DNA from: Catajapyx aquilonaris
Taxonomy: Eukaryota
Assembly: GCA_000934665.2 (NCBI GenBank)
Contig: JYFJ02002620.1
Location: 1 to 53,803, forward strand
Length of the DNA: 53,803 bases
Reading direction: 5' to 3'
Part shown: positions 12,201 through 37,802 of the stretch, one piece after another
How the letters are laid out: the number at the start of each line of letters is the position of its first letter
Numbering within the stretch: the stretch's first letter is position 1
The notes under the pieces: generated by a model
Database searches by the model: none
What the model was told of the DNA's origin: nothing
Seen by the model: only the letters and a program-made list of their open reading frames with translations
Translations under genes and position numbers: made by a program

Positions 12201-12550
12201 TCTTATCGGCAATAATTGTGTGGGGGGAAAGAAATCAAAAGAAGTTGTAAGTGATGGAGTCACTTTGATCCATAATATTCTTGGATCAAAGAAGCCCCAA
12301 GACTCCTTGTCCATTATGGTCATGATAAACTGAACTCTCTGGGTACAGTCAGTGAGTTCAAAAGGTGTCTCCAATGTGGCACCGTACTGATAGCAGTAAT
12401 GTTGTACTAATATACACGATGTTACAGGTAACTTTGGCTAAAATCACAGGGTGGGTAGAGGCCCCATAGGCAAGTATTTTGAGCTTAGGTAACAACAGTT
12501 CAAAAAGAATTGTCCCTCGCGTCGAGCGGGCAGCCACGCGTCAGGATTAA

Positions 12551-13071
12551 CCTGTTGAGGGCCGAGTTTTTTTTTGGCCATTTTAGTCTCTTTATGAAAA
12601 AAAAATCTAGTAGGAGTAATATTAATGAAAAACAATATGCTCCAATATTTATCATTTCAACTCGTGGTGGTCCTTTTGACTGTAAAATGCCGAAAAAATT
12701 TATCTACAGGGTGGTCCAGAAAAAAATTTAACGTGCAATTAACTTGAAACGTAATTAAATTTATTTAAATTTTTAACGTCACTATAAAATTGTTACTGTG
12801 GTTACATAATACTACTAAAACACTGTACTTAGAGAAATTACTACGAGTCCAGACGTCACATGTTGTCAAAAACTTTCAGGCGGGAGGGGGTATGCTTAGC
12901 TCCCGCTGGGAGGCGGGAAAACTGATTAGCATACGCCGTGATGGTTGAGCCCCCTTCCACGAGGTGGTAGGAGCAGTTTGAGCCTCAAACTGCGCCATTT
13001 TTGTGTAAACTCTAGTGCTCCCAGTTCAAAAACCAGCAGGAAGTCATATGACTTCCGTGGCCCTCAACAGG
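12551..13071. mobile_element. piggyBac-like non-autonomous element
   Basis: TTAA TSD (12547-12550 and 13072-13075), 13-bp TIR CCTGTTGAGGGCC, subterminal palindrome GGAAGTCATATGACTTCC. Confidence 0.9.
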
Positions 13072-13416
13072 TTAAAGCAACCAGTTAACTGGTTCCTTTC
13101 ATCCTGACGCGTGGCTGCCCGCTCGACGCGAGGGACAATTCTTTTTGGACTGATGGTACCCATGTCCGGAAATACCCCCGTACGGGACGGGGGTACGGCC
13201 GTTTCCACCTTTAGTATGTGTGACGTGCCCGTTAACTGTGCCCGTGCCTGTTAACTACTGTTAACTGTTAACTGTGCCTGTTAACTGTGACGTTGCCCGT
13301 TTAACTGTGTCTCCTTTGTTGGGTGAGTGGAACAAGGGGTCTGGGGCTAGGCCTAGTGTGTGTCTGGGTCTGGTCCCATGTGTCGTGCCCTCTTTAGCCG
13401 GGCGGGCACGTCACAT

Positions 13417-13491
13417 TGGCGCCCAACGTGGGGCGCGAACCCACGACCCTGAGATTAAGAGTCTCATGCTCTACCGACTGAGCTAGCCGGG
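13417..13491 (-). tRNA. tRNA-Lys(CTT) retrocopy (positions 2-76 including CCA), probably a pseudogene
   Basis: Minus strand CCCGGCTAGCTCAGTCGGTAGAGCATGAGACTCTTAATCTCAGGGTCGTGGGTTCGCGCCCCACGTTGGGCGCCA matches canonical animal tRNA-Lys(CTT) except A58>C (13435) and missing G1. Anticodon at 13457-13459. Confidence 0.95.
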
Positions 13492-13641
13492 TACTGAGCG
13501 TGTGTGATTAAATACAGTTTATACAGGAACTGTGTCTCCTTTGTTGGGTGAGTGGAACAAGGGGTCTGGGGCTAGGCCTAGTGTGTGTCTGGGTCTGGTC
13601 CCATGTGTCGTGCCCTCTTTAGCCGGGCGGGCACGTCACAT

Positions 13642-13661
13642 TGGCGCCCTTAACGTGGGTC
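13642..13661 (+). promoter_or_regulatory. Imperfect tRNA-Lys primer-binding site
   Basis: TGGCGCCC-TT-AACGTGGGTC, one base after the LTR end; 2-nt insertion and 1 mismatch versus the tRNA 3' end. Confidence 0.85.
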
Positions 13662-15416
13662 TATTACCTCGGGGTTTTTTTAAGCCCGTGGTGTAGCATT
13701 TGCACGGACCCGGGGCGAACAGTTCAGACTGTTGCCCGTGGCTTGGGTGGAGTCCACCGATTTGGTTAATCGAGGGACTCGCGCTGTGGTACGGCGCCAC
13801 CCAGCGGTGCAAGGGTACCGCCAGTTCATCACTGGAGGTACCGGGGTGCGCCCCGCCTCGGTGGAGGTGTGGTGTGCGCCCCAGGGGCCAGCCCTCAGGT
13901 GGGCGGGTGAGCGAGTCGCCCCCGGGAGCGGCCAGGGGGCTGTGGGGGTGGACGAGTCACCGCCCACTGCCTTTGAGGAGAAGGCGAAGGCTGGCTTGGT
14001 TGTTTTGGGTGACTTGTTGCGTCATCCAGGCACACCCAGGAAGGTGCAAACGTCCATTTCATTAGTGGTTTTGACCTTCCTGAACTCCATGTCATTTTTC
14101 TGTAAATGAGATGCAGTGCGTTAAATCCCTCCTTCCGGCCTTTTTGTGAGACAAAAGAGAGTCTGATGGCCATGTTGAGACATGGCGAAGGTAGTCGATG
14201 TTTTGCTCGCCTGGTTTTTCTGGTTGCCAGGCGGGGTTAGGGCGTCGACATGTGGGGTGATGAGGTCGACTGGTGCGATCGAGTAGTTCCTCCTGGTGCC
14301 AGTTTTGGGTAAACCGATACTGGCGGCTTTTATGAAAGCCGTGGAACTCGGGCTTCTGCGTTTCAGGACAACGTAAGAAGCGGAGGGCGGCATGTTTTGA
14401 GGTCGGCATGCCCTTCCTCCCTTTTCGGGTGTTTTGCCTGTTTTGGCGCCCTTTAGTTTTGCTGTCATGGGGGTGACTCCTATTGCTTGAATAGGGGCTC
14501 GGCCACTATGGAGTTGCTGGCAATGGACTTGTTTGTTGTGCATTGTTAGCAGCTCAGAGGTGCTTGCCTTGGGTTGTTTCTTTTGTGGATTTTTTTTTTC
14601 GATAATTGATTTGGTATGGCATACTTTTGTTGGTGTAGTGTGCAACAATGGTGGCAACGTTTTTTTTCTTTGAGTTTTTTTTGTGAGTGAGCCCATTGTA
14701 AGACCTCGTGACCAGCAGTGTGTATACAGAAACTTTGTGAACTTTTTGAACCTTTTGAACTTTTTGAACTTTTTGAACCCACGTGTGAGGTGTTTTTGTG
14801 GCGGCGGGTTTACCCATCCTTTTCCTCCCAATTTCCCCTCCCATTCCCAAGTTAATCCGTTTGGCCCTGTGTTGGAGCTGGCAAGTGGTCGACTTCTGCG
14901 ACTCGCAGGTGTATGAGTTTGGACAGTTCGTGGCGACACTGGGGCTGGTGACCTCGTCGCATGCTTGGCGGTCATGGTCGGGCCAGCATGCGGGTGCAGG
15001 GGCGCCCGTTGGCTGCGAGTACACCGGCGATGGACTGTTGGTGTGCTGCGTGGAGGTGCCTGACATGTTACCGGTCAGGATGGACGTTGGTCGCCGCCGG
15101 TGGAGGTTCTGTCTGGACTCTGACCTGTCTCTGAAACAGATGTTGTGGGTGGTGGCGGCCCAGCAGGGGGACCCAGGCTGTCCGGCGGTGGACATCAGAA
15201 GTTACTGCTGACCAGCTGTGCTTCCTGGACTTACAAGCCGTTTTCTGCATTTGGGCCTACGACCTTTTTCTCCCTTCACCCCCCCCCCCCGCCACATTAC
15301 ATTGGTTGAATGTTAAAGTGAATTTTGTGTTGTTTTTTATGATGTCTTAATTTCTGCGGGTTTTGATGGAATTTTGAGTTTGTACGTCTCCGACTTTTTC
15401 TTTGTGAGGGGGGCAC

Positions 15417-15770
15417 TGTGGCGGCTTGAACAGCCGCACAGAGGGCAGCACCTTACTGAGGGTTGTGAGGATGAGGTGGGAGGCAGGGTAGGAGGAGCCG
15501 GGGAGATGGAGATGGGCCAGGGTAGAGGGTGGACGTGTTTTGGGTAGTCTCCCTCCTGTGCACTCGGCTGGGGGGGCCTTTGGGCCCCGTGGGTATACGT
15601 GAGTTGATGTGTATGACTGTGTACTGAGCGTGTGTGATTAAATACAGTTTATACAGGAACTGTGTCTCCTTTGTTGGGTGAGTGGAACAAGGGGTCTGGG
15701 GCTAGGCCTAGTGTGTGTCTGGGTCTGGTCCCATGTGTCGTGCCCTCTTTAGCCGGGCGGGCACGTCACA
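15417..15770 (+). repeat. Putative complete 3' LTR (U3-R-U5)
   Basis: Begins TGTGGCG after a purine tract and ends CGTCACA. TATA-like at 15594, ATTAAA at 15637-15642. The left boundary is inferred because no second U3 copy exists. Confidence 0.65.
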
Positions 15771-16107
15771 TATGTTGCGCCTGGTGGGTAGGCCACCCAC
15801 CGTACTCGAAGCTTGCGTTCATCAGGTGTGTCGCGTATGGAGGAGACGAAGGTGAAAACAATACAGTATAATTATTGCGAGTGTCAAGTGCAAAACACGC
15901 GACACACCTGATGAACGCAAGCTTCGAGTACGATGGGTTGCCTACCAACCAGGTGCAACAGACCAAAGGTGGAAACGGCCGCGGCCGTACCCCCGTACAG
16001 GGGCATTTACGGACATGGGTAGCCTACCTATAAGCTCAAAATACTTGCATATGGGGCCTCTACCCACCCTGTGATTTTTGCCACTACCACCCTGTATTTG
16101 ATTAATA

Positions 16108-16187
16108 GGGGAGACTTAGTGGCGCTGTGGTAACGTAGTACGCGCCCACGGATGTTAAGGTCCCGGGTTCGATCCCAGTCCGGACAC
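16108..16187 (+). mobile_element. SINE family B head only
   Basis: TGGCGCTGTGGTAACG...GCGCCCACGGATGTTAAGGTCCCGGGTTCGATCCC as at 2380 and 2756. Confidence 0.75.
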
Positions 16188-17580
16188 ATCAGTTGGAGGT
16201 CCATAACGTTGAACTATTGCAACATATACGAAATATGATTATTGCGTTGGGAAGATATTTTAACACCCTTTCAGGTGGTGGGAATCATGTTCGTAAAAAA
16301 AATCAAAATTTCGAATTAAAGATGGCGCCCAAAATTTGATTCGGATTTTCCTCAATTCTGGACATTTTAAAATAATTTCGAATTGCGCTATAAATATGAA
16401 GCCCGAAACGTTTTCTTGAGAATTACGCAAAATTTGGATGGACGATATTGGGTATTAGCCAAATATAATAACATTTTGTGCGCCAAATGCGCCCTGTAAT
16501 GTAGTCACCTCAATTTGCACCAAAATTTTCCCGAAATGGTTGCTTTAAAATTTCAGAGATAAACAGGATTCAGTTGAAAGTGGCCCCCATTTTTAAGCGC
16601 TTTGAGGAAGTAGCAAGGTTCAGAATTTTTATTGTCGTGTGCGGATGCCCAAATGAATTTTGACGTGGCTGAATCATGAATTACATAATTGTCGATATAG
16701 GAAAATGTTTGAAACTGACATTAAAACCATTAGCCTATAACAACTTCATAAATATTTTCGATCCGATTTTTAAAAAAAATTTCTAACTTTTACGTCCTGT
16801 CCAGAAGCTATATTGGAATCTTAGTGTTTTAATGAGGTAGGTAATGGGTTGCAAAGGTAATGAGCTACACAGTTTCTGTTGCGTAAACTTGTAAAAGTAG
16901 AAGCAGAGCCAAAGTTAGGCATGGGATGCGGGTGGGGGGAGGGGGGTGGAGTATGGCGAAAAGGTGATACCCGTGGGGTTTTCTGGCGACTATCGGAGCT
17001 AACCCGATAAAGCCCCCGCCGCGGCGGCATCATGCTGAAAGGCCAGCCCATTTCCAGCAGGGTTTCCAGGCTCCATTTCTATGCTCATCAGTGCGGCCCA
17101 GACCATTTTGACGTGGCACGCTTTAAGTGTTTTTGGCGGAGCTGGCAAGAGGCTTAGTGGCAACTCCCTTTGCTTGTCCACTAGGTGCCGGAAATGGACG
17201 CTGCAGCAAAAACGTCAGCCACCGGAAATCACGGCTGTTGCCTGTATAGCCTACATTGTGCTGGGATGGCTGCGGGAGGACTTGTTTGCGATGCCTGCCC
17301 AGAACAGCTCCTATCTCCATTAGGACGCATTCACACTACTTTTGCCTTCCTCTGCACTCACCGGCCCCCGCCACTACTTCCACACTAGTATTCCACCACG
17401 GTTCCTTCACATTAAACGCAGAGGATCTCAAATATCTTCTGCGAGACGGGTCTAACCAATTTTCCAATATAATATATTTATATGTAAGTTGTTGTATCCA
17501 AAATAATGGCATTAATCTAATATGAAGTAGGTTTATAATATTTGGCTCTCTTCTCATATTGGTCATGACAGAATAATAGT

Positions 17581-18952: not shown

Positions 18953-21647
18953 GGGTGGTTCCATTTCAGATCAGCCAGTGAGTGAAAAAAGGTGTCAGGT
19001 CATAGTCATCGATTTTTTTGAAAAATATATATGTGAAACCCACATCGAATTGAACTCTTATGGAACAATCAGTTTTACCAGATTAAATTTAGTTATCGAG
19101 TTATTAATATTTCTTTGAAGGGGTACCAAAATCACAATCACGCGAATACGCACTTTTTCCCGCTTTTTCCATTTCTTTCAATGAGTATATCTCGGGAACT
19201 GTTCTGAGAACCAACATGAAATTTTGGAATTTTGGAATTTTGGAATAACACGCTGTTATGTAATGCATAAATTTACCTTATTTAATGGTACAGTCACCTG
19301 CAAAAAAATCTCCAACATTGCATATTTTGGTCAAAATTCGCATATTTCGCAATTTATTACGGCGTTATGGTAAACGTGACGGTTATGCCGATTATATTTT
19401 GTGATATACTCGGTGACCCCTTCCAGGCTATGAAATAAAACCTTCGTTAGCTCCGCGTGTAGTTGAGATATGCGAGGTGAAAATATGGCTACAAGCGAAA
19501 ACGTGCATATTTCAAAAGTTATTTTCTCAAAAAAGCCATTTTAATATTTTTATTTTATTTTTTATTTTACAAGGAAAGGCATGGTATAAAATTACCTGGT
19601 GTCAAAACCCCGTATATGTTTTTTATACGTGAGATACAAATTTTTGAAAAGTCACAACTTTTGTAATTGTGCTACAAAATGCACAATTCAAATAAATATT
19701 TTCTCAAAGAAGCCATTTTAAATATTTTATTTTTATTTTTTATTTTATAAGGTCGGACATGTTATCAAATTAAGTAGTGTCAAAACCCGGTATATATTTC
19801 TTATACGTGAGATATAAATTTTTGTAAAGTAACAACATTCGAAATTGTGCTACAATATGCACAGTTAAAATAAACATTTTCTCGAAGAAGCCATTTTGAA
19901 AATTTGATCGTTATTTTTTGTATAACAAAGTAGCATGAGTTCGATTATAAAATTATATCAAAATTCGGTATATATTTGTATTAAGTGAGACACGAATTTT
20001 TTACAGTGATGATTTTTGTTTCTATGCAACAACATGCACATTTCAAAAATTAATATATGGAAAACGCCATTTTAAATATGCAATATTCTTTTATATTTCA
20101 TAAAGAAAAGACCGGTTCTGTCATAAAATAATATAAAAACCTGGTATAGATTATTGATGATACAAATTTATGGAAAGTGGAAGCATACCGGAAGCAAAAA
20201 AAAAAAGATGAATGGGCAGCCATTCCAGCAGCGAAAGGGATTCAAAGTTGCCATCATTGGTTCGCGGACAATGGATGTACAATAATGACACGGACATATA
20301 CTTCTCCTGACAAGAGCGAGGAAGTGACTGCTACCACTCCTGCTGCTACTTAAGTACTGTCAAGTAAGTTCCCTACTACAATGAAATTCACACCAAAAGT
20401 TAGACTATATCAGTTCGCGCATATTAATATGCGAACAACTGTACCCAAGTCTATGAGATAGGATACGGAGTGTTGCAACTGACGAAATATAAATAAATTT
20501 CACTATTGCTATAATACATTATGAGTTTATAACTTTAGAAGTGACTGCAAGGGTGTTGAAAGACACTAAACGAAAGCAAAAATACCGGTACCGGTACCAC
20601 TTTTCATAAATTTGTACCATCAAGAATCTATACCAGGTTTTTATATTATTGTATGACAGAACTGATCTTTCCTTTATGAAATATAAAAGAATATTGCATA
20701 TTAAAAATTGCGTTTTCCATATATTAATTTTTGAAATGTGCATTTTGTAGCACAATTTTGAATGTTGTTACTTTACAAAAATTTATATCTCACGTATAAG
20801 AAATATATACCGGGTTTTGACACTACTTAATTGATAACATGTCCGACCTTATAAAATAAAAAATAAAAATAAAAAATATTTAAAATGGCTTCTTTGAAAA
20901 AATATTTATTTGAATTGTGCATTTTGTAGCACAATTACAAAAGTTGTGACTTTTCAAAAATTTGTATCTCACGTATAAAAAACATATACGGGGTTTTGAC
21001 ACCAGGTAATTTTATACCATGCCTTTCCTTGTAAAATAAAAAATAAAATAAAAATATTAAAAATGGCTTTTTTGAGAAAATAACTTTTGAAATATGCATG
21101 TTTTCACTTGTTGCCATATTTTCACCTCGCATATCTCAACTACACGCGGAGCTAACGAAGGTTTTATTTCATAGCCTGGAAGGGGTCACCGAGTATATCA
21201 CAAAATATAATCGGCATAACCGTCACGTTTACCATAACGCCGTAATAAATTGCGAAATATGCGAATTTTGACCAAAATATGCAATGTTGGAGATTTTTTT
21301 GCAGGTGACTGTACCATTAAATAAGGTAAATTTATGCATTAAATAACAGCGTGTTATTCCAAAAGCATGAGTTAAAAATTTCATGTTGGTTCTCAGAACA
21401 GTTCCCGAGATATCCTCATTGAAAGCAATGGAAAAAGCAGGAAAAAGTGCGTCTTCGCGTGATTGTGATTTTGGTACCTCTTCAAAGAAATATTAATAAC
21501 TCGATAACTAAATTTAATATGGTAAAACTGATTGTTCCATAAGAGTTCAATTAGATGTGGGTTTCACATATATATTTTTCAAAAAAATCGATGATTATGA
21601 CCTGACACCTTTTTTCACTCACTGGCTGATCCGAAATGGAACCACCC
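18953..21647. mobile_element. 2.7-kb palindromic DNA transposon, Sola2-like
   Basis: GGGTGGTTCCATTTC...GAAATGGAACCACCC, flanked by AGCT. More than 1-kb near-identical arms with ~180-bp internal repeats. The centre encodes DEWAAIPAAKGIQSCHHWF. Confidence 0.85.
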
Positions 21648-21808
21648 AGCTGGTTCTTTGGGGGGGGGGGGGGGNGGGGGGGGGGACTACCTATAGGGAA
21701 ACACCCGGTATAATGGATGAGCTGACTGTGATGTAGCAAAAGCAGAGTAAAATTTCAACTAATTTCTTCTACCACATTGATTTCAGAAAATTTTTCAGTC
21801 TATAGGTA

Positions 21809-24491: not shown

Positions 24492-24764
24492 ACCGAAGCA
24501 GGTTGGCATAGTGGATAAGGCGTCCGACTGCTAATCGGGAGGTCCTGGGTTCGAATCCCGGGGCCGGCAACTCTGACCGGGGTTTTCTGTGGTTTCCCAC
24601 GGTCCTTCCAGGAAAATTCCGGAGTTGCTTCCGTAATTAATAGGCCACAGCCGCTTCCTTCCGTCCCTATCATATCCCAAAGAGCACAGTAAAATGAAAA
24701 GCAAAGAGTTCCAGGCAAAACAAACTTCCCCCCTAAAGAGCCGATGGCTGATAACGATGTATGA

Positions 24765-25753: not shown

Positions 25754-25988
25754 ACCGAAGCAGGTTGGCTTGGTGGATAAGGCGTCCGACTGCTAATCGG
25801 GAGGTCCTGGGTTCGAATCCCGGGGCCGACAACCCTGACCGTCGTTTTCTGTGGTTTTCCACGGCCTTTCTAGGATAATTCCGGGGTCGCTTCCGTATAA
25901 TAGGCCACATCCGCTTCCTTCCTTCCTTCCCTATCCTTGGAGGTTGAAAGGAAATGCTGGGCCAACCTCCTTAATATCAATTATAAAG
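25754..25988 (+). mobile_element. SINE family A with a different 3' end
   Basis: Head and body match 24492-24675. TSD GGTGAACACC at 25744-25753 and 25990-25999. Confidence 0.85.
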
Positions 25989-28514: not shown

Positions 28515-28717
28515 TTAAAGTGCATCTCCAATAAGCATCAATCCAGTGAAATTGGGAGTTACGACGTTTTTACAGCACGTCGACTATGTGGTGGGCAGGG
28601 GTGGGGGGCGGGTCAGGTTGTTTTTAGGTTTATTCTCATGAGTTTTATTAGTTAATATGTTGGGTTAGCTTGCGTCTCCCTTCATCGCTGACTACCCCTC
28701 ATAGGGAAATGTCGTGA

Positions 28718-28762
<45 letters not shown>
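28718..28762. repeat. (GTT)n microsatellite
   Basis: Seen directly. Confidence 0.95.
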
Positions 28763-30192
28763 CGACTATAATTATTTTCTTTATTGTCTCTGTTTTGGGA
28801 ATCCATTTCTCGAATAGTGATGATGCAAGAAGGGGTCCGCTTCATACTGCTCAATAGGACCACAGCCTTGACGTCTGGATCCAGATTGTTTGCACGACCG
28901 AGGGGGAGTTGGCAAGGGAAGCACCGAGAGAAGAGCGGGGGAACTAGCGAAAGGAGATACTTTGGAGAAGGTTGTGTGTGAGAGACCTCCCGGACAATAA
29001 TTGATGTGTTACGAGTTGCAAGAAGAGAAGAGGTGTGGGTGCCAGAAGAGGTGTGGGTGCCGGAAGCCGTGGAAGCAAGACCGGGAAGGGGAGTGGAAGT
29101 CCGACCCCTTCGTCTGCTGTCCTGTTAGGATTGTTCCGGACCACCGTGAGGAAGAAGTACGGACGTACATTTGGGCAAGTACAGCTGCTTTGGGAGAGCG
29201 TCCCGTTCCTGTCTGGAGAAGCAGCCACGTACAGCGGAAGAAACCTTCTTACCCACCTTGTCCTTCCGCCTACTCCATTTGACAGTATACTCCCAAGAGT
29301 ACCACCCCTGTCCTGGTGAGTATTCAACGCGTCAGTGAAACTGTTTATGCCCCGTGTACTTGTACCTGCACAGAGAAGTGAACCTGTTGCACAAGGATAC
29401 CTGGTGGAACCCCCCTTGTGTACTCACAGTCAACTTCCGTGGTGTGCAGAGGAGAAGCAACTCAGGTGACAGTGCCGTAGTAGCATCTGTTCGACGCAGT
29501 AGCCGCTGGTCATCACGTACACGACAGAGCAACTGGTCAGCATTCATCTGTTCGACGCAGTAGTAGCTGGTCATCATGGGTACGACATAGCAACTGACCT
29601 GCCCCGAAGCACCGTAGCAATCATCGTGCGGAAGCTGACCAGAAGAGAGAGAGACGAGACCATCCGACCATACAGTATTGTCCGACCGTCCTCTTTCAAC
29701 CCTGTACTCCTAACTAGTCCTCATACCCACGTGCAAGCATGCAATATGGAGCAGATTGCTCAATAAATCTGGGGAAGAGTAGCAGGTGTACCATCATTCA
29801 AATAACCCTCCCTCTCGTAAGCAGAACATCCTTACAGATAACATGAGAGCAATATGAAGGGGAAACTCACAACTCACGACTCTTCCTTTCAAATGACAGT
29901 AAAATAAAGGCGTAACCCTCTATACTATAGCAAATAAAGAAGGTCTATATCTATACAGTTAGTAAAAGTTATAAAGCAAAGGAAGTGGCAGTCTGTAAAT
30001 AATTCACGCAACCTTTACGTAGAATATGCATTGCTCTAAACACTGTATATTTGAATAATTCGTTTTAGTACTGCACCGACACAACATACACCTGGTGGTC
30101 CAATAAGAAGGATGCAGGGCTCACATGTAAACTGTTTACTAGAAAAAACCTCGCTACGCTCGCATTTTTATATGGCGCAGGCGTAGAAAACC

Positions 30193-31494: not shown

Positions 31495-32815
31495 TTGAGT
31501 CTCGCGGGGTAGCCATATCTAACAGAATGTGCAACATGTGTTTATATTTGAACAGGGAGCTTGGATTCGGTGATAAAGACGTGAAACTCGGTACAATAAT
31601 TGTTCTTTGAACACTTACGAACATATCTGGACGTGGGGCCACAATGACCCACCTCGATGGAGGGCACTCTCGAGGGGTTGCCATTTCTAACAGAATGTGC
31701 AACATAGTGCAACATAGCGATAGTGTCATCCAGCGGGGTCGGTTATCGTGGCCCCACGTCCAAATATGTTCGGAAGTGTCCAAAGAACTAACGTACCAAG
31801 TTTCACGTCTTTATCACCGAATCCAAGCTCCCTGTTCAAATATAAACACATGTTGCACATTCTGTTAGATATGGCAACCCCGCGAGAGTGCCCTCCATCG
31901 GGATGGGTTATCGTGGCTCCACCTCTATAGATATGTTCGGAAGTGTGCAAAGAGTATTGTCCCGAGTTTCACGTCTTCGTCACCAAATGCAAGTCCCCTA
32001 TTCAAACATAAACGCATCATGTTGTACAGTATGTTAGATATGGTATCCCCGAAATAGTGACCTCCACCGGGGCCCCACGTCCAGATAATATGTTCGAAAG
32101 TGTGCAAAGAACTAATACTGTGCCGAGTTTCACGTCTTTATCACCGAATTCAAGCTCCCTATTCACATAGTTTACTTAGAGAGCCCATTAGATCTGGCAA
32201 CCCTGCGAGTGACCCCCAGCGGGGTCATCCATAGTGGCCTCACTTTCAGACATGTTAAGTAGTGTCTAATGACCAATTGGGGCTGGTTTCATGTTTTATG
32301 AGTGTTTTATCACCGAATGCAAGGCCCTTATTCATGTAAATGCATGCAGCACATGTTCGATTTGGCAACTCCGCGATAGTGACCCCTGGCGGGGCCACCC
32401 ACAGTGGCACCACGTACATATATGTTGAGATGTGTTCAAAGAAGTACCGCACCGAGTTTCACATTTTTTATCACCGAATGCAAGCTCCCAATTCACATGA
32501 TCTTCGCAGAGAGGTATGTTGGGTCCGTTAGATCTAGCAACCCTGCGAGTGACCCACAGCTGGGTCAGTCATCATGGCCCCACGTCCAGACATGTTCAGA
32601 AGTGTTCAAAGACCAATAATAATTTTGGAGAGTTTCATGTTTTTGTCACCGAATACAAGGTCCTAAAGGATGCTGCATCTGGTAGTTATGGCAACGCTGC
32701 GAAATGGACCTCCACCGGGGTGGGTCATCGTGGCCCCACGTCCAGATATGACCAAAAGTGTCCAAAGAACAAGTGTACCGAGTGTCATACTTTTGTCACA
32801 AAATGCCAAGTTTGG
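31495..32815. repeat. ~164-bp tandem array with an inverted block at its left
   Basis: GGCCCCACGTCCAGA-like anchors near 31750, 31915, 32071, 32236, 32406, 32576 and 32732. 31500-31705 is in the opposite orientation. Confidence 0.85.
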
Positions 32816-35848: not shown

Positions 35849-36970
35849 GTGTGATTCTCCAAAAACTTACCAATACCATGTCCCAGCATAATAACTCAAA
35901 AATGGCTTGACTGAGAGAGTTGATTTTTTAAACATTTGGAGAAGCAGTTGACACCTAGCCATCCCCATGAAAACAAAGAAAATATTAAATTAAGTTTTAC
36001 TGCAAAAAAATGTCTAAGGGCCTAAAATCACTCTTCTTGGCATGTCCCGATCTCATTTTAAAGCATGCTATATTTTCTCACAATTTTATTATTAACATTA
36101 TACAAGTTTCAATACTATAATTAAATTATACATAGTTGCAGGTATAAAACAACATTTTTAAAACGATTTATTCATTTGACATGACCTTACTGCATCACTC
36201 CAAAGTGTGTCCCGAGTTTTCCCGGAAATAAAAAGTTCACACTCCGGGCTCATTTTTCTATGTCACAAAATAGCTTAAACATTTTGAAATAACTGTGATT
36301 CCATGGCATGAAGGGCCTTCTTGAACCCACAGAAATTTCCAGAGTCAACGTTTGTTCTGGACCGTGATATTAATCCTAATCGATCCTAATGCATCCAAAG
36401 GTCAATTCTTCTGGCTCCCAAACTCCCGGAAATAAAAAGTTCATATTCCTGGCTCATTTTTCTATGTCACAAAATAGTTTAAATGTTTTGAAATAACTCT
36501 GATTACATGGCATGAAGGGTCTTCTTGAACCCACAGAAATGTCCAGAGTCAACGTTCGTTCTTGACCGTGATATTAATCCCAATTCATCCAAAAGTCATT
36601 TTTCTCCCGGAAATAAAAAGTTCACACTCCTGGCTCATTTTTCTATGTCACATAATTTTAGCTTAAATGTTTTGAAATAACTGTGATTCCATGTAATGAA
36701 GGGTCTTCTTGATCCCACCGAAATCTCCATAGACAACGTTTGTTCTGGACCGTGATATTAATCCTATTGCATGCATAGGTCATTCTTCTGGCTCCCGAAC
36801 TCCTGGAAATATTCACTCTCCTGGCATAGAATATCAGAATTAGTTCTCCATATTTTTCCCTGATTTGTGACCTCATATAGAGTAAGTGAGAATTTTTCCA
36901 GATTTTTAAAACAATTTTTGAAATTCATTAATTCTTGCTTTGAAAATGGTAAGTTTTTGGAGAATCACCC
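35849..36970. mobile_element. Non-autonomous DNA transposon with 4-bp TSD (Sola-like)
   Basis: TIR G(G/T)GTGATTCTCCAAAAACTTACCA, TSD ATAT, three ~180-200-bp internal repeats. A reverse-oriented relative lies at about 42720-43230. Confidence 0.8.
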
Positions 36971-37517: not shown

Positions 37518-37802
37518 AATAATAATTCATACCCCGTTATCAGCCATCGGCCCTTTAGGGGGGAAGTTTGTTTTGCCTGGAACTCTTTGCTTTTCATTTT
37601 ACTGTGCTCTTTGGGATAGGATAGGGACGGAAGGAAGCGGCTGTGGCCTATTAATTATTACGGACGCAACTCCGAAATTTTCCTGGAAGGACCGTGGGAA
37701 ACCACAGAAAACCACGGTCAGAGTTGCCGGCACCGGGATTCGAACCCAGGACCTCCCGATTAGCAGTCGGACGCCTTATCCACTATGCCAACCTGCTTCG
37801 GT
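37518..37802 (-). mobile_element. Full-length SINE family A
   Basis: Near-identical to 24492-24770; TSD AATTCAA(A/T)GGCATAT. Confidence 0.92.

Follow-up and report, generated by a model that had tools for sequence, protein, structure and literature searches.

During standard reverse transcription, plus-strand synthesis is primed at the polypurine tract and copies U3-R-U5 first; the plus strand then copies 18 nucleotides of the primer tRNA and is stopped by m1A58, leaving a 3' end that fits the second strand transfer (steps as outlined in passages of PMC13191261 and PMC8599865). Two identical LTRs are the outcome of this scheme, at least in the portion of PMC6894440 that deals with standard reverse transcription. 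When the methylase is mutated, as in TRMT6 mutant cells, plus-strand synthesis extends beyond position 58 (extracts of PMC8599865; review PMC13191261), and read-through cDNA is described, in the same extracts, as a dead end that is unable to integrate (PMC8599865). Cloned circular DNA of Moloney MLV was found to carry a tRNA copy between its LTRs, with 4 nucleotides missing at the tRNA 5' end (Colicelli and Goff 1986, as summarised in part of PMC12220202), and in a Jurkat clone the 3' end of an HIV provirus is directly adjoined by a reverse-transcribed tRNA-Gly with CCA (Gurgo and Franchini 2025, PMC12220202, in the sections on this clone). Additionally, the junctions of HIV-1 2-LTR circles can bear insertions derived from the PBS or from the tRNA primer (PMC5618025, in extract). 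Read-through in the absence of m1A58, whole-tRNA copies beside U5 and PBS-length remnants at circle junctions are already known. Ohshima, Koishi, Matsuo and Okada are said to have proposed, in 1993, a strong-stop-DNA model in which the arrangement of primer and strong-stop DNA is the progenitor of tRNA-Lys SINEs. An integrated, duplication-flanked LTR retrotransposon in which the cognate primer had been copied almost in full was not found in the literature surveyed, in which older subscription journals were thinly covered.

Here, a locus that appears to be of this kind is described from a 53,803-nucleotide stretch of contig JYFJ02002620.1 of Catajapyx aquilonaris (assembly GCA_000934665.2), referred to below as the window. 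It is considered likely that 75 nucleotides of this locus are a DNA copy of mature primer tRNA-Lys(CUU), made when plus-strand synthesis read through the primer, moved to the LTR end of a minus strand as its new template and thereafter resumed the normal transfer.

Results

A near-complete tRNA-Lys copy with an encoded CCA

The plus strand at 13417-13491 reads as an antisense tRNA-Lys with anticodon CTT over 75 nucleotides. A preliminary description of this DNA, made from the letters alone, had noted the same stretch, together with its CCA and its position one base past an LTR end, and this is borne out here. ARAGORN predicts a minus-strand tRNA-Lys(ctt) at 13417-13492, and the Rfam tRNA model matches the minus strand at 13420-13492 with 54.6 bits (gathering score 29; E 3.4e-11), whereas the four SINE-type tRNA-like heads of the window score only 32.7-42.3 bits with Rfam. 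The CCA is encoded in the DNA, its complement TGG occupying 13417-13419, and the first 18 nucleotides of the tRNA-derived copy (13417-13434) form a perfect PBS. The earlier designation of these 18 nucleotides as a PBS is upheld by their location, since the LTR ends at 13415 and is followed by a spacer T at 13416. Given the Rfam E-value and the exact PBS register, a chance origin of the tRNA match is excluded.

In the Rfam alignment, all stem pairs of 13417-13492 are standard with the exception of pair 1-72, which is non-standard because 13492 (T on the plus strand, A in tRNA sense) is foreign to the tRNA; the copy therefore spans tRNA positions 76 to 2. The G at 13491 is attributable equally to the tRNA copy or to the segment that follows, such that either 2 or 3 is the last position copied, with 1-2 nucleotides absent at the tRNA 5' end. 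The T-loop of the copy reads UUCGCGC, compared with a consensus of UUCgAaU in the Rfam alignment. By numbering counted on that alignment, tRNA position 58 is C in tRNA sense, or G on the plus strand at 13435, where the consensus has A, and this C58 is the sole deviation from the tRNA consensus core. The substitution at 13435 had been put forward previously as the only internal difference, which stands with regard to the tRNA consensus and to standard pairing once the non-standard pair 1-72 is set aside.

In tRNA sense, no run of four or more T residues occurs in the 77 nucleotides downstream of the copy, and ARAGORN detected no Lys-CTT gene elsewhere in the 53.8-kb window. A cloverleaf is present, but the reading as a functional nuclear tRNA gene was rejected on account of C58, the non-standard 1-72 pair, the encoded CCA and the lack of a T-run. 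It is established that CCA is not encoded in eukaryotic tRNA genes.

The enclosing LTR element

The tRNA copy is enclosed in a single non-coding LTR element of 2,552 bp (13219-15770), the parts of which run in the order LTR, tRNA copy, partial LTR, PBS, internal region and LTR (Table 1). The termini are of the TG...CA type, with TGTGACGTGCCCG on the left and CGGGCACGTCACA on the right forming a perfect 13-nucleotide terminal inverted repeat, and TATG, a 4-bp target-site duplication, flanks the element on both sides. The target of the insertion was a host foldback repeat, the left flank matching the other foldback arm through 13218 (equivalent to 15959) and the right flank matching it from 15773 (equivalent to 15960). 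Since the flanks map in this manner onto an uninterrupted foldback arm, both copies of TATG represent the same 4 nucleotides, and the duplication is a clean one of 4 bp. A single insertion accounts for all 2,552 bp.

Table 1. Features of the LTR element and its flanks, with positions in the window
Feature	Position	Strand	Evidence
Target-site duplication TATG, left	13215..13218	.	Flank mapping on other foldback arm
X, 84-nt upstream part of leftmost LTR; begins TGTGACGTGCCCG, exact inverse complement of LTR end	13219..13302	+	
LTR 3' part (U5 or R-U5), 113 nt, ends GTCACA	13303..13415	+	Three identical copies
Spacer T between LTR end and tRNA-complementary sequence	13416..13416	+	Same spacer at 13641
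tRNA-Lys(CUU) copy, mature, positions 2-76 with CCA	13417..13491	-	ARAGORN; Rfam tRNA model
tRNA position 58, C for consensus A	13435..13435	-	Rfam alignment
Second LTR copy, 5'-truncated, 37 nt plus common 113 nt	13491..13640	+	100% identity to 3' LTR end
Element's own PBS (PBS2), imperfect Lys type	13642..13659	+	BLAST, sequence
Internal region, G/T-rich, without recognisable coding capacity	13660..15536	+	ORFs against Pfam
Candidate polypurine tract (PPT), purine-rich	15478..15536	+	Composition
3' LTR	15537..15770	+	Last 150 nt (15621-15770) by repetition; start at 15537 (TG after purine tract) presumed
Target-site duplication TATG, right	15771..15774	.	Flank mapping

The leftmost LTR closes at 13403-13415 with CGGGCACGTCACA, and the succession of LTR end, T and TGG is seen again at 13640-13644, ahead of the element's own PBS. 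Together with the adjoining T, the 3' part of the LTR is present three times at 100% identity (13303-13416, 13528-13641 and 15658-15771), and BLAST aligns 13491-13641 with 15621-15771, 2,130 nucleotides away, at 100% over 151 nucleotides. The tRNA copy and the truncated LTR overlap by 1 nucleotide, the G at 13491. ATTAAA is located at 13507-13512, within the 37-nucleotide part of the truncated LTR. The 3' LTR contains the same motif at 15637-15642, 15 nucleotides ahead of the shared 113 nucleotides, and two TATA motifs, at 15594-15597 and 15650-15653, the former being situated 27 nucleotides ahead of 15621, the equivalent of 13491. PBS2 is equivalent to the first 16 nucleotides of the tRNA-derived PBS (13417-13432) with a 2-nucleotide insertion, TT, after the 8th base; accordingly, BLAST returns 98.5% identity with a 2-nucleotide gap between 13528-13659 and 13303-13432. 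Occurrences of the PBS 8-mer elsewhere, at 14444 and 16323, are without LTR context and were dismissed as chance matches. The single layout of LTR, PBS and tRNA given in the preliminary description is confirmed as far as it went, but the duplicated piece of LTR, the second PBS and the mismatch between LTR upstream parts, considered below, had been overlooked.

Features by which LTR elements are recognised are present, namely direct terminal repeats, TG...CA ends with a short duplication, and a PBS just past the 5' LTR. For coding capacity, every stop-to-stop ORF of 120 aa or longer in the window was compared with Pfam; of these 28 ORFs, which include six in the internal region, none reached a cut-off, and the ORFs of the element gave no Pfam match at all, sub-threshold matches included. 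A 317-aa minus-strand frame in the element was discarded as a low-complexity artefact of composition. The base composition of the internal region is A 0.16, C 0.22, G 0.32 and T 0.29. Since neither gag nor pol was detected, the element is non-autonomous, and it is classified as a non-autonomous LTR retrotransposon (LARD/TRIM-like) that is primed by tRNA-Lys. The lone sub-threshold Pfam match in the window, to a CUB domain (15.9 bits against a cut-off of 27), lies outside the element at 28699-29124. The candidate PPT is 80% purine over 59 nucleotides, with 12 purines in the final 16, and would serve as the plus-strand primer, the adjoining 3' LTR start being one for which there is no second copy to fix the boundary.

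The upstream part of the leftmost LTR

TGTTAAC repeats abound in X, for which TRF reports repeats of 7, 10 and 13 nucleotides. Alignment of X to 15470-15675 gives a score of 55.5, compared with 43.3 ± 5.9 for 200 shuffles, the maximum of which was 61.5. X was therefore rejected as a divergent form of what lies upstream in the 3' LTR, the alignment score lying within the shuffle range. Rejected also was the possibility that X is a patchwork of element parts, as only the terminal 13-mer and an 8-mer within it recur; the 13-mer is the sole long exact match of X to the remaining element, and exact matches of at least 8 nucleotides number 8, against 3.7 expected and a shuffle maximum of 9. When the leftmost LTR is folded as RNA, the structure has a z score of -5.4 and is closed by the terminal inverted repeat.

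Since X and the upstream portion of the 3' LTR are unrelated, a simple model in which the element derives from one molecule is incomplete. Moreover, the mismatch between the LTR upstream parts means that no parent of identical layout can have given rise to the copy by faithful replication. Judged from its sequence, 13219-15770 is probably a chimeric one-off as opposed to a member of a propagating family; both a one-off fossil and a stable family had been proposed beforehand, and the mismatch between the 5' and 3' LTRs favours the former.

Age and relatives of the element

No differences were observed between the LTR repeats over 263 compared positions (150 + 113), indicating that the insertion is young. 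BLAST of the window revealed no second copy of the tRNA-bearing LTR arrangement within 53.8 kb, and exact-match scans with two 23-nucleotide LTR probes returned no loci in metagenome contigs and none in viral contigs. The sequence of 12900-16100 is partly present in five sequencing runs from two studies, with word shares of 0.15-0.50, and no RNA runs are listed among the runs that contain part of it.

Discussion

Proposed origin of the tRNA copy

The anatomy and register of the tRNA copy, the identities between the LTR segments and the target duplication are observed directly in the DNA. As regards the order of events that led to them, we infer that plus-strand strong-stop synthesis failed to stop after 18 nucleotides and passed position 58 with the incorporation of a wrong base, and that reverse transcriptase (RT) may then have continued to within 1-2 nucleotides of the tRNA 5' end. 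Next, with a 1-nucleotide overlap (G), the growing strand would have switched to an acceptor that is taken to be minus-strand DNA, 150 nucleotides before the LTR end, a landing point that is possibly the 3' end of minus-strand strong-stop DNA, i.e. the start of R. In copying R-U5 and the PBS for a second time, the strand would have acquired a proper PBS 3' end, permitting a normal second strand transfer. Copying of the entire compound leader by the minus strand would thereafter have yielded a fully double-stranded product, and the finished DNA would have been inserted as one unit into the host foldback repeat.

A layout of tRNA, LTR and PBS is what would result from a second copying of an LTR end and a primer by a read-through plus strand. 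The perfect PBS is found in the block derived from the tRNA, and the imperfect PBS, bearing the additional TT, in the block attributed to the RNA genome. Read-through followed by integration was the explanation advanced in the preliminary description, and it fits the antisense orientation, the PBS register, the CCA and the missing 5' nucleotides; it receives further support from the direct junction of the copy to an R-U5-like piece of LTR, with the element's own PBS coming next and a single target duplication around the whole unit, but it leaves the LTR mismatch unexplained. Given the positions of the first TATA and of ATTAAA in the 3' LTR, there is about an even chance that the 37 nucleotides represent R and the 113 nucleotides U5, with the switch having been made end to end onto minus-strand strong-stop DNA. 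The second TATA, at 15650, allows a transcript start inside the common 113 nucleotides as opposed to one at 13491.

Source of the unmatched LTR upstream part

Because X falls outside standard replication, a second source is called for, which may have been another parental molecule or else a resident LTR with which recombination took place. In the first case, a co-packaged relative with an X-type LTR is a candidate source, the minus strand of which may have templated the read-through; the plus strand would then have jumped from the minus strand of the relative to the element's own. In the second, the same read-through cDNA, in circular or linear form and with the order LTR, tRNA, R-U5, PBS, internal region and LTR, would have entered not by means of integrase but by homologous recombination within the shared 113-nucleotide U5 of a solo X-U5 LTR already resident at this TATG site. 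Recombination of cDNA with resident elements is reported from work on yeast Ty1, and a resident X-U5 LTR would, at the cost of one extra step, account for both the foreign upstream part and the three identical copies of U5; the TATG duplication would by this route be that of the older solo LTR. Such a route requires, however, that the resident U5 was identical to that of the incoming cDNA at 113 of 113 positions, whereas no other X-type LTR is present in the window. Entry by this route is viewed as unlikely, although it fares best among the alternatives to insertion of the finished DNA as a unit.

The substitution at position 58

We lean, by a modest margin of belief, towards C58 being the scar of a bypassed m1A58, a link that rests on the following considerations. 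The change at 13435 is a T-to-G transversion on the plus strand. The 95% upper bound on pairwise LTR divergence is ∼1.1%, corresponding to at most ∼0.4 substitutions expected in 75 nucleotides, and by our own arithmetic the chance of one substitution hitting position 58 is 1 in 75; given the absence of LTR differences, a random later hit on this position is unlikely. Positions 9 and 26 of the copy are both A (our numbering of the Rfam alignment), in view of which m1A58 is presumably the only strongly RT-blocking base in the copied tRNA-Lys. A single blocking base agrees with a single scar.

Bypass of m1A by RT with misincorporation does occur, according to passages of PMC4787781. For m1A followed by G, however, the overall C signal was low in vitro with the RT used there (PMC4787781, same passages), indicating that C58 is not the commonest readout to be expected, while RT signatures are stated, in an extract of PMC7144921, to vary with the enzyme. 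The low C readout of that one in vitro study favours the view that the primer was indeed read through but that C58 arose from a common RT error or from subsequent point mutation, for example on a hypomodified tRNA, and it is loss of m1A58 that permits continued synthesis in the case described in extracts of PMC8599865. The lack of differences between the LTRs and the odds against a hit on this particular position render a later mutation improbable, and this view as a whole is held to be slightly less likely than recombination with a resident LTR.

Further alternatives

It is improbable that the antisense tRNA is a stable constituent of a propagating family, of which the present copy would be an ordinary offspring. 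The perfect 18-nucleotide PBS in the tRNA copy could still bind a primer, as such a family would require; yet standard offspring would share one upstream part in both LTRs (PMC6894440, as excerpted), whereas the two differ here, and the partial LTR is without any upstream promoter part. The absence of a second copy from the 53.8 kb also weighs against a family. An assembly artefact, in the form of a chimeric join among the three identical 113-nucleotide repeats, is slightly less probable again. Identical repeats that lie 225 and 2,130 nucleotides apart could be mis-ordered, and the window contains one N, at 21675. Nonetheless, the junctions between LTR and tRNA and between tRNA and 13492 are unique sequence in exact biological register, which re-ordering of repeats cannot create; at most, the tRNA block would be relocated beside the 3' LTR, leaving the reading of read-through unchanged.

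Finally, it is scarcely credible that the sequence is a genuine tRNA gene, a pseudogene or a tRNA-derived SINE beside an LTR element, or the result of a HITME-like switch onto a free tRNA: the window does have many SINE heads of tRNA origin (1111, 24498, 25760 and 37725), but the copy has no similarity to that SINE family and is single in the window, its encoded CCA, C58, missing base 1 and lack of a terminator speak against a gene or SINE origin, as does the fact that both its flanks are parts of one element within a single target duplication, and a minus-strand switch onto free tRNA would, we reason, give tRNA sense on the plus strand, outside the PBS register.

Significance and comparison with known systems

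Under the preferred reading of primer read-through, the locus suggests a natural rescue, in which read-through is followed by a jump to another LTR end, the PBS is copied again and replication continues. If the interpretation of C58 as a scar is true, a rare mark of tRNA modification would have become heritable in chromosomal DNA. The locus would also provide a concrete chromosomal case of a primer tRNA joined to U5-derived DNA, as reportedly occurs in the intermediate envisaged by Ohshima and colleagues in 1993. The most far-reaching combination of these ideas, by which the locus is at once a natural snapshot of the strong-stop step at the origin of tRNA-Lys SINEs and a potential SINE seed by virtue of the tRNA internal promoter and pol III, a germline fossil of m1A58, and a read-through rescued by a second switch, is given little credence.

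With respect to the progenitor in the model of Ohshima and colleagues, the likeness is that on the minus strand of the locus a CCA-bearing tRNA-Lys runs directly into the complement of U5. Unlike tRNA-Lys SINEs, the copy is single and inside an LTR element, with no dispersed family in the window, and pol III transcription, a LINE-type tail and amplification are SINE features that go beyond those displayed by the locus.

The resemblance to HIV-1 2-LTR circles is that primer-derived sequence is retained beside an unprocessed U5 end; the circles, as portrayed in extracts of PMC5618025, have PBS-length pieces and are dead ends, whereas the present locus has a 75-nucleotide tRNA copy in an integrated element. 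In common with the products of TRMT6 mutants, the same step appears to have failed, with synthesis proceeding past tRNA positions 58 and 54 (PMC8599865 and PMC13191261, in part). Those products were obtained in vitro or in cell culture, however, and at the present locus the product seems to have been rescued by a further change of template; furthermore, base 58 suggests bypass of the modified base at this locus, whereas in the TRMT6 case the modification is absent (extracts of PMC8599865).

The HIV-adjacent tRNA-Gly, from which 5 nucleotides are missing, is similarly a mature, CCA-bearing copy with a truncated 5' end located beside U5 (PMC12220202, sections on the clone). That tRNA is outside the provirus, non-cognate and without flanking repeats, and a separate insertion event was favoured by its authors (PMC12220202, same sections). 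Conversely, the tRNA described here is inside the element, in PBS register and within one target duplication.

The circular Moloney MLV DNA, as far as it is summarised in the source cited above, is alike in that plus-strand synthesis copied the primer tRNA in its entirety, the copy being found between the U5 end and more LTR sequence, and in that the tRNA 5' end is incomplete, by 4 nucleotides there and by 1-2 here. The MLV case, by the same summary, concerns a mutant retrovirus grown in cell culture, the circle being unintegrated and the tRNA a non-cognate tRNA-Gly. In contrast, the present locus is chromosomal and duplication-flanked, belongs to a non-coding LTR retrotransposon with a cognate Lys primer, has a second LTR without an upstream part and bears a base change at position 58. 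Taken against these systems, the analysis suggests that what is new here is a chromosomal, duplication-flanked retrotransposon that combines a near-whole copy of its cognate primer with a second switch that restored the PBS and a change at a modified base.

tRNA-like sequences and repeats across the window

Four tRNA-like heads, distinct from the antisense tRNA-Lys(CTT) copy carried by the LTR element, were detected in the window, with Rfam bit scores ranging from 32.7 to 42.3; ARAGORN called three of the four as Ser-GCT. Since each head is followed by a common body of 100-200 nt, the sequence indicates that the heads at 1111, 24498, 25760 and 37725 belong to a tRNA-derived SINE family rather than being genes. 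A further tRNA-like stretch, at 16108-16190, was called neither by ARAGORN nor by Rfam at the gathering score, and may represent a decayed SINE head.

Repeats and tRNA-like features in the window
Feature	Position	Remarks
Foldback (long inverted-repeat) host repeat	12430-13218 and 15771-16075	flanks LTR element on both sides
~520-bp element with terminal inverted repeats	12551-13071	nested within foldback repeat; read by eye
tRNA-like stretch (…GGTTCGATCCC…)	16108-16190	directly past foldback repeat
tRNA-like heads (four)	1111-1168, 24498-24569, 25760-25831, 37725-37796 (minus strand)	ARAGORN, Rfam
Direct repeats, tandem or closely spaced	19539-19894	unit ~178 nt
Direct repeats, tandem or closely spaced	31709-32804	unit ~114 nt
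Direct repeats, tandem or closely spaced	36220-36777	unit ~170-200 nt

The internal region of the LTR element (13660-15536) displays strong strand asymmetry (A 0.16 vs T 0.29), which accounts for a 317-aa stop-free frame on its minus strand that encodes low-complexity sequence only.

Within the foldback repeat that hosts the LTR element, 13157-13218 pairs with 16021-15959, and 15773-15836 with 15960-15897 at 94%. An additional inverted pair, 12488-12547 versus 13101-13160, shows 95% identity. Inspection by eye of the nested element revealed terminal inverted repeats, reading CCTGTTGAGGGCC… at one end and …GGCCCTCAACAGG at the other, with TTAA on either side (12547-12550 and 13072-13075); the element looks like a piggyBac-type MITE.
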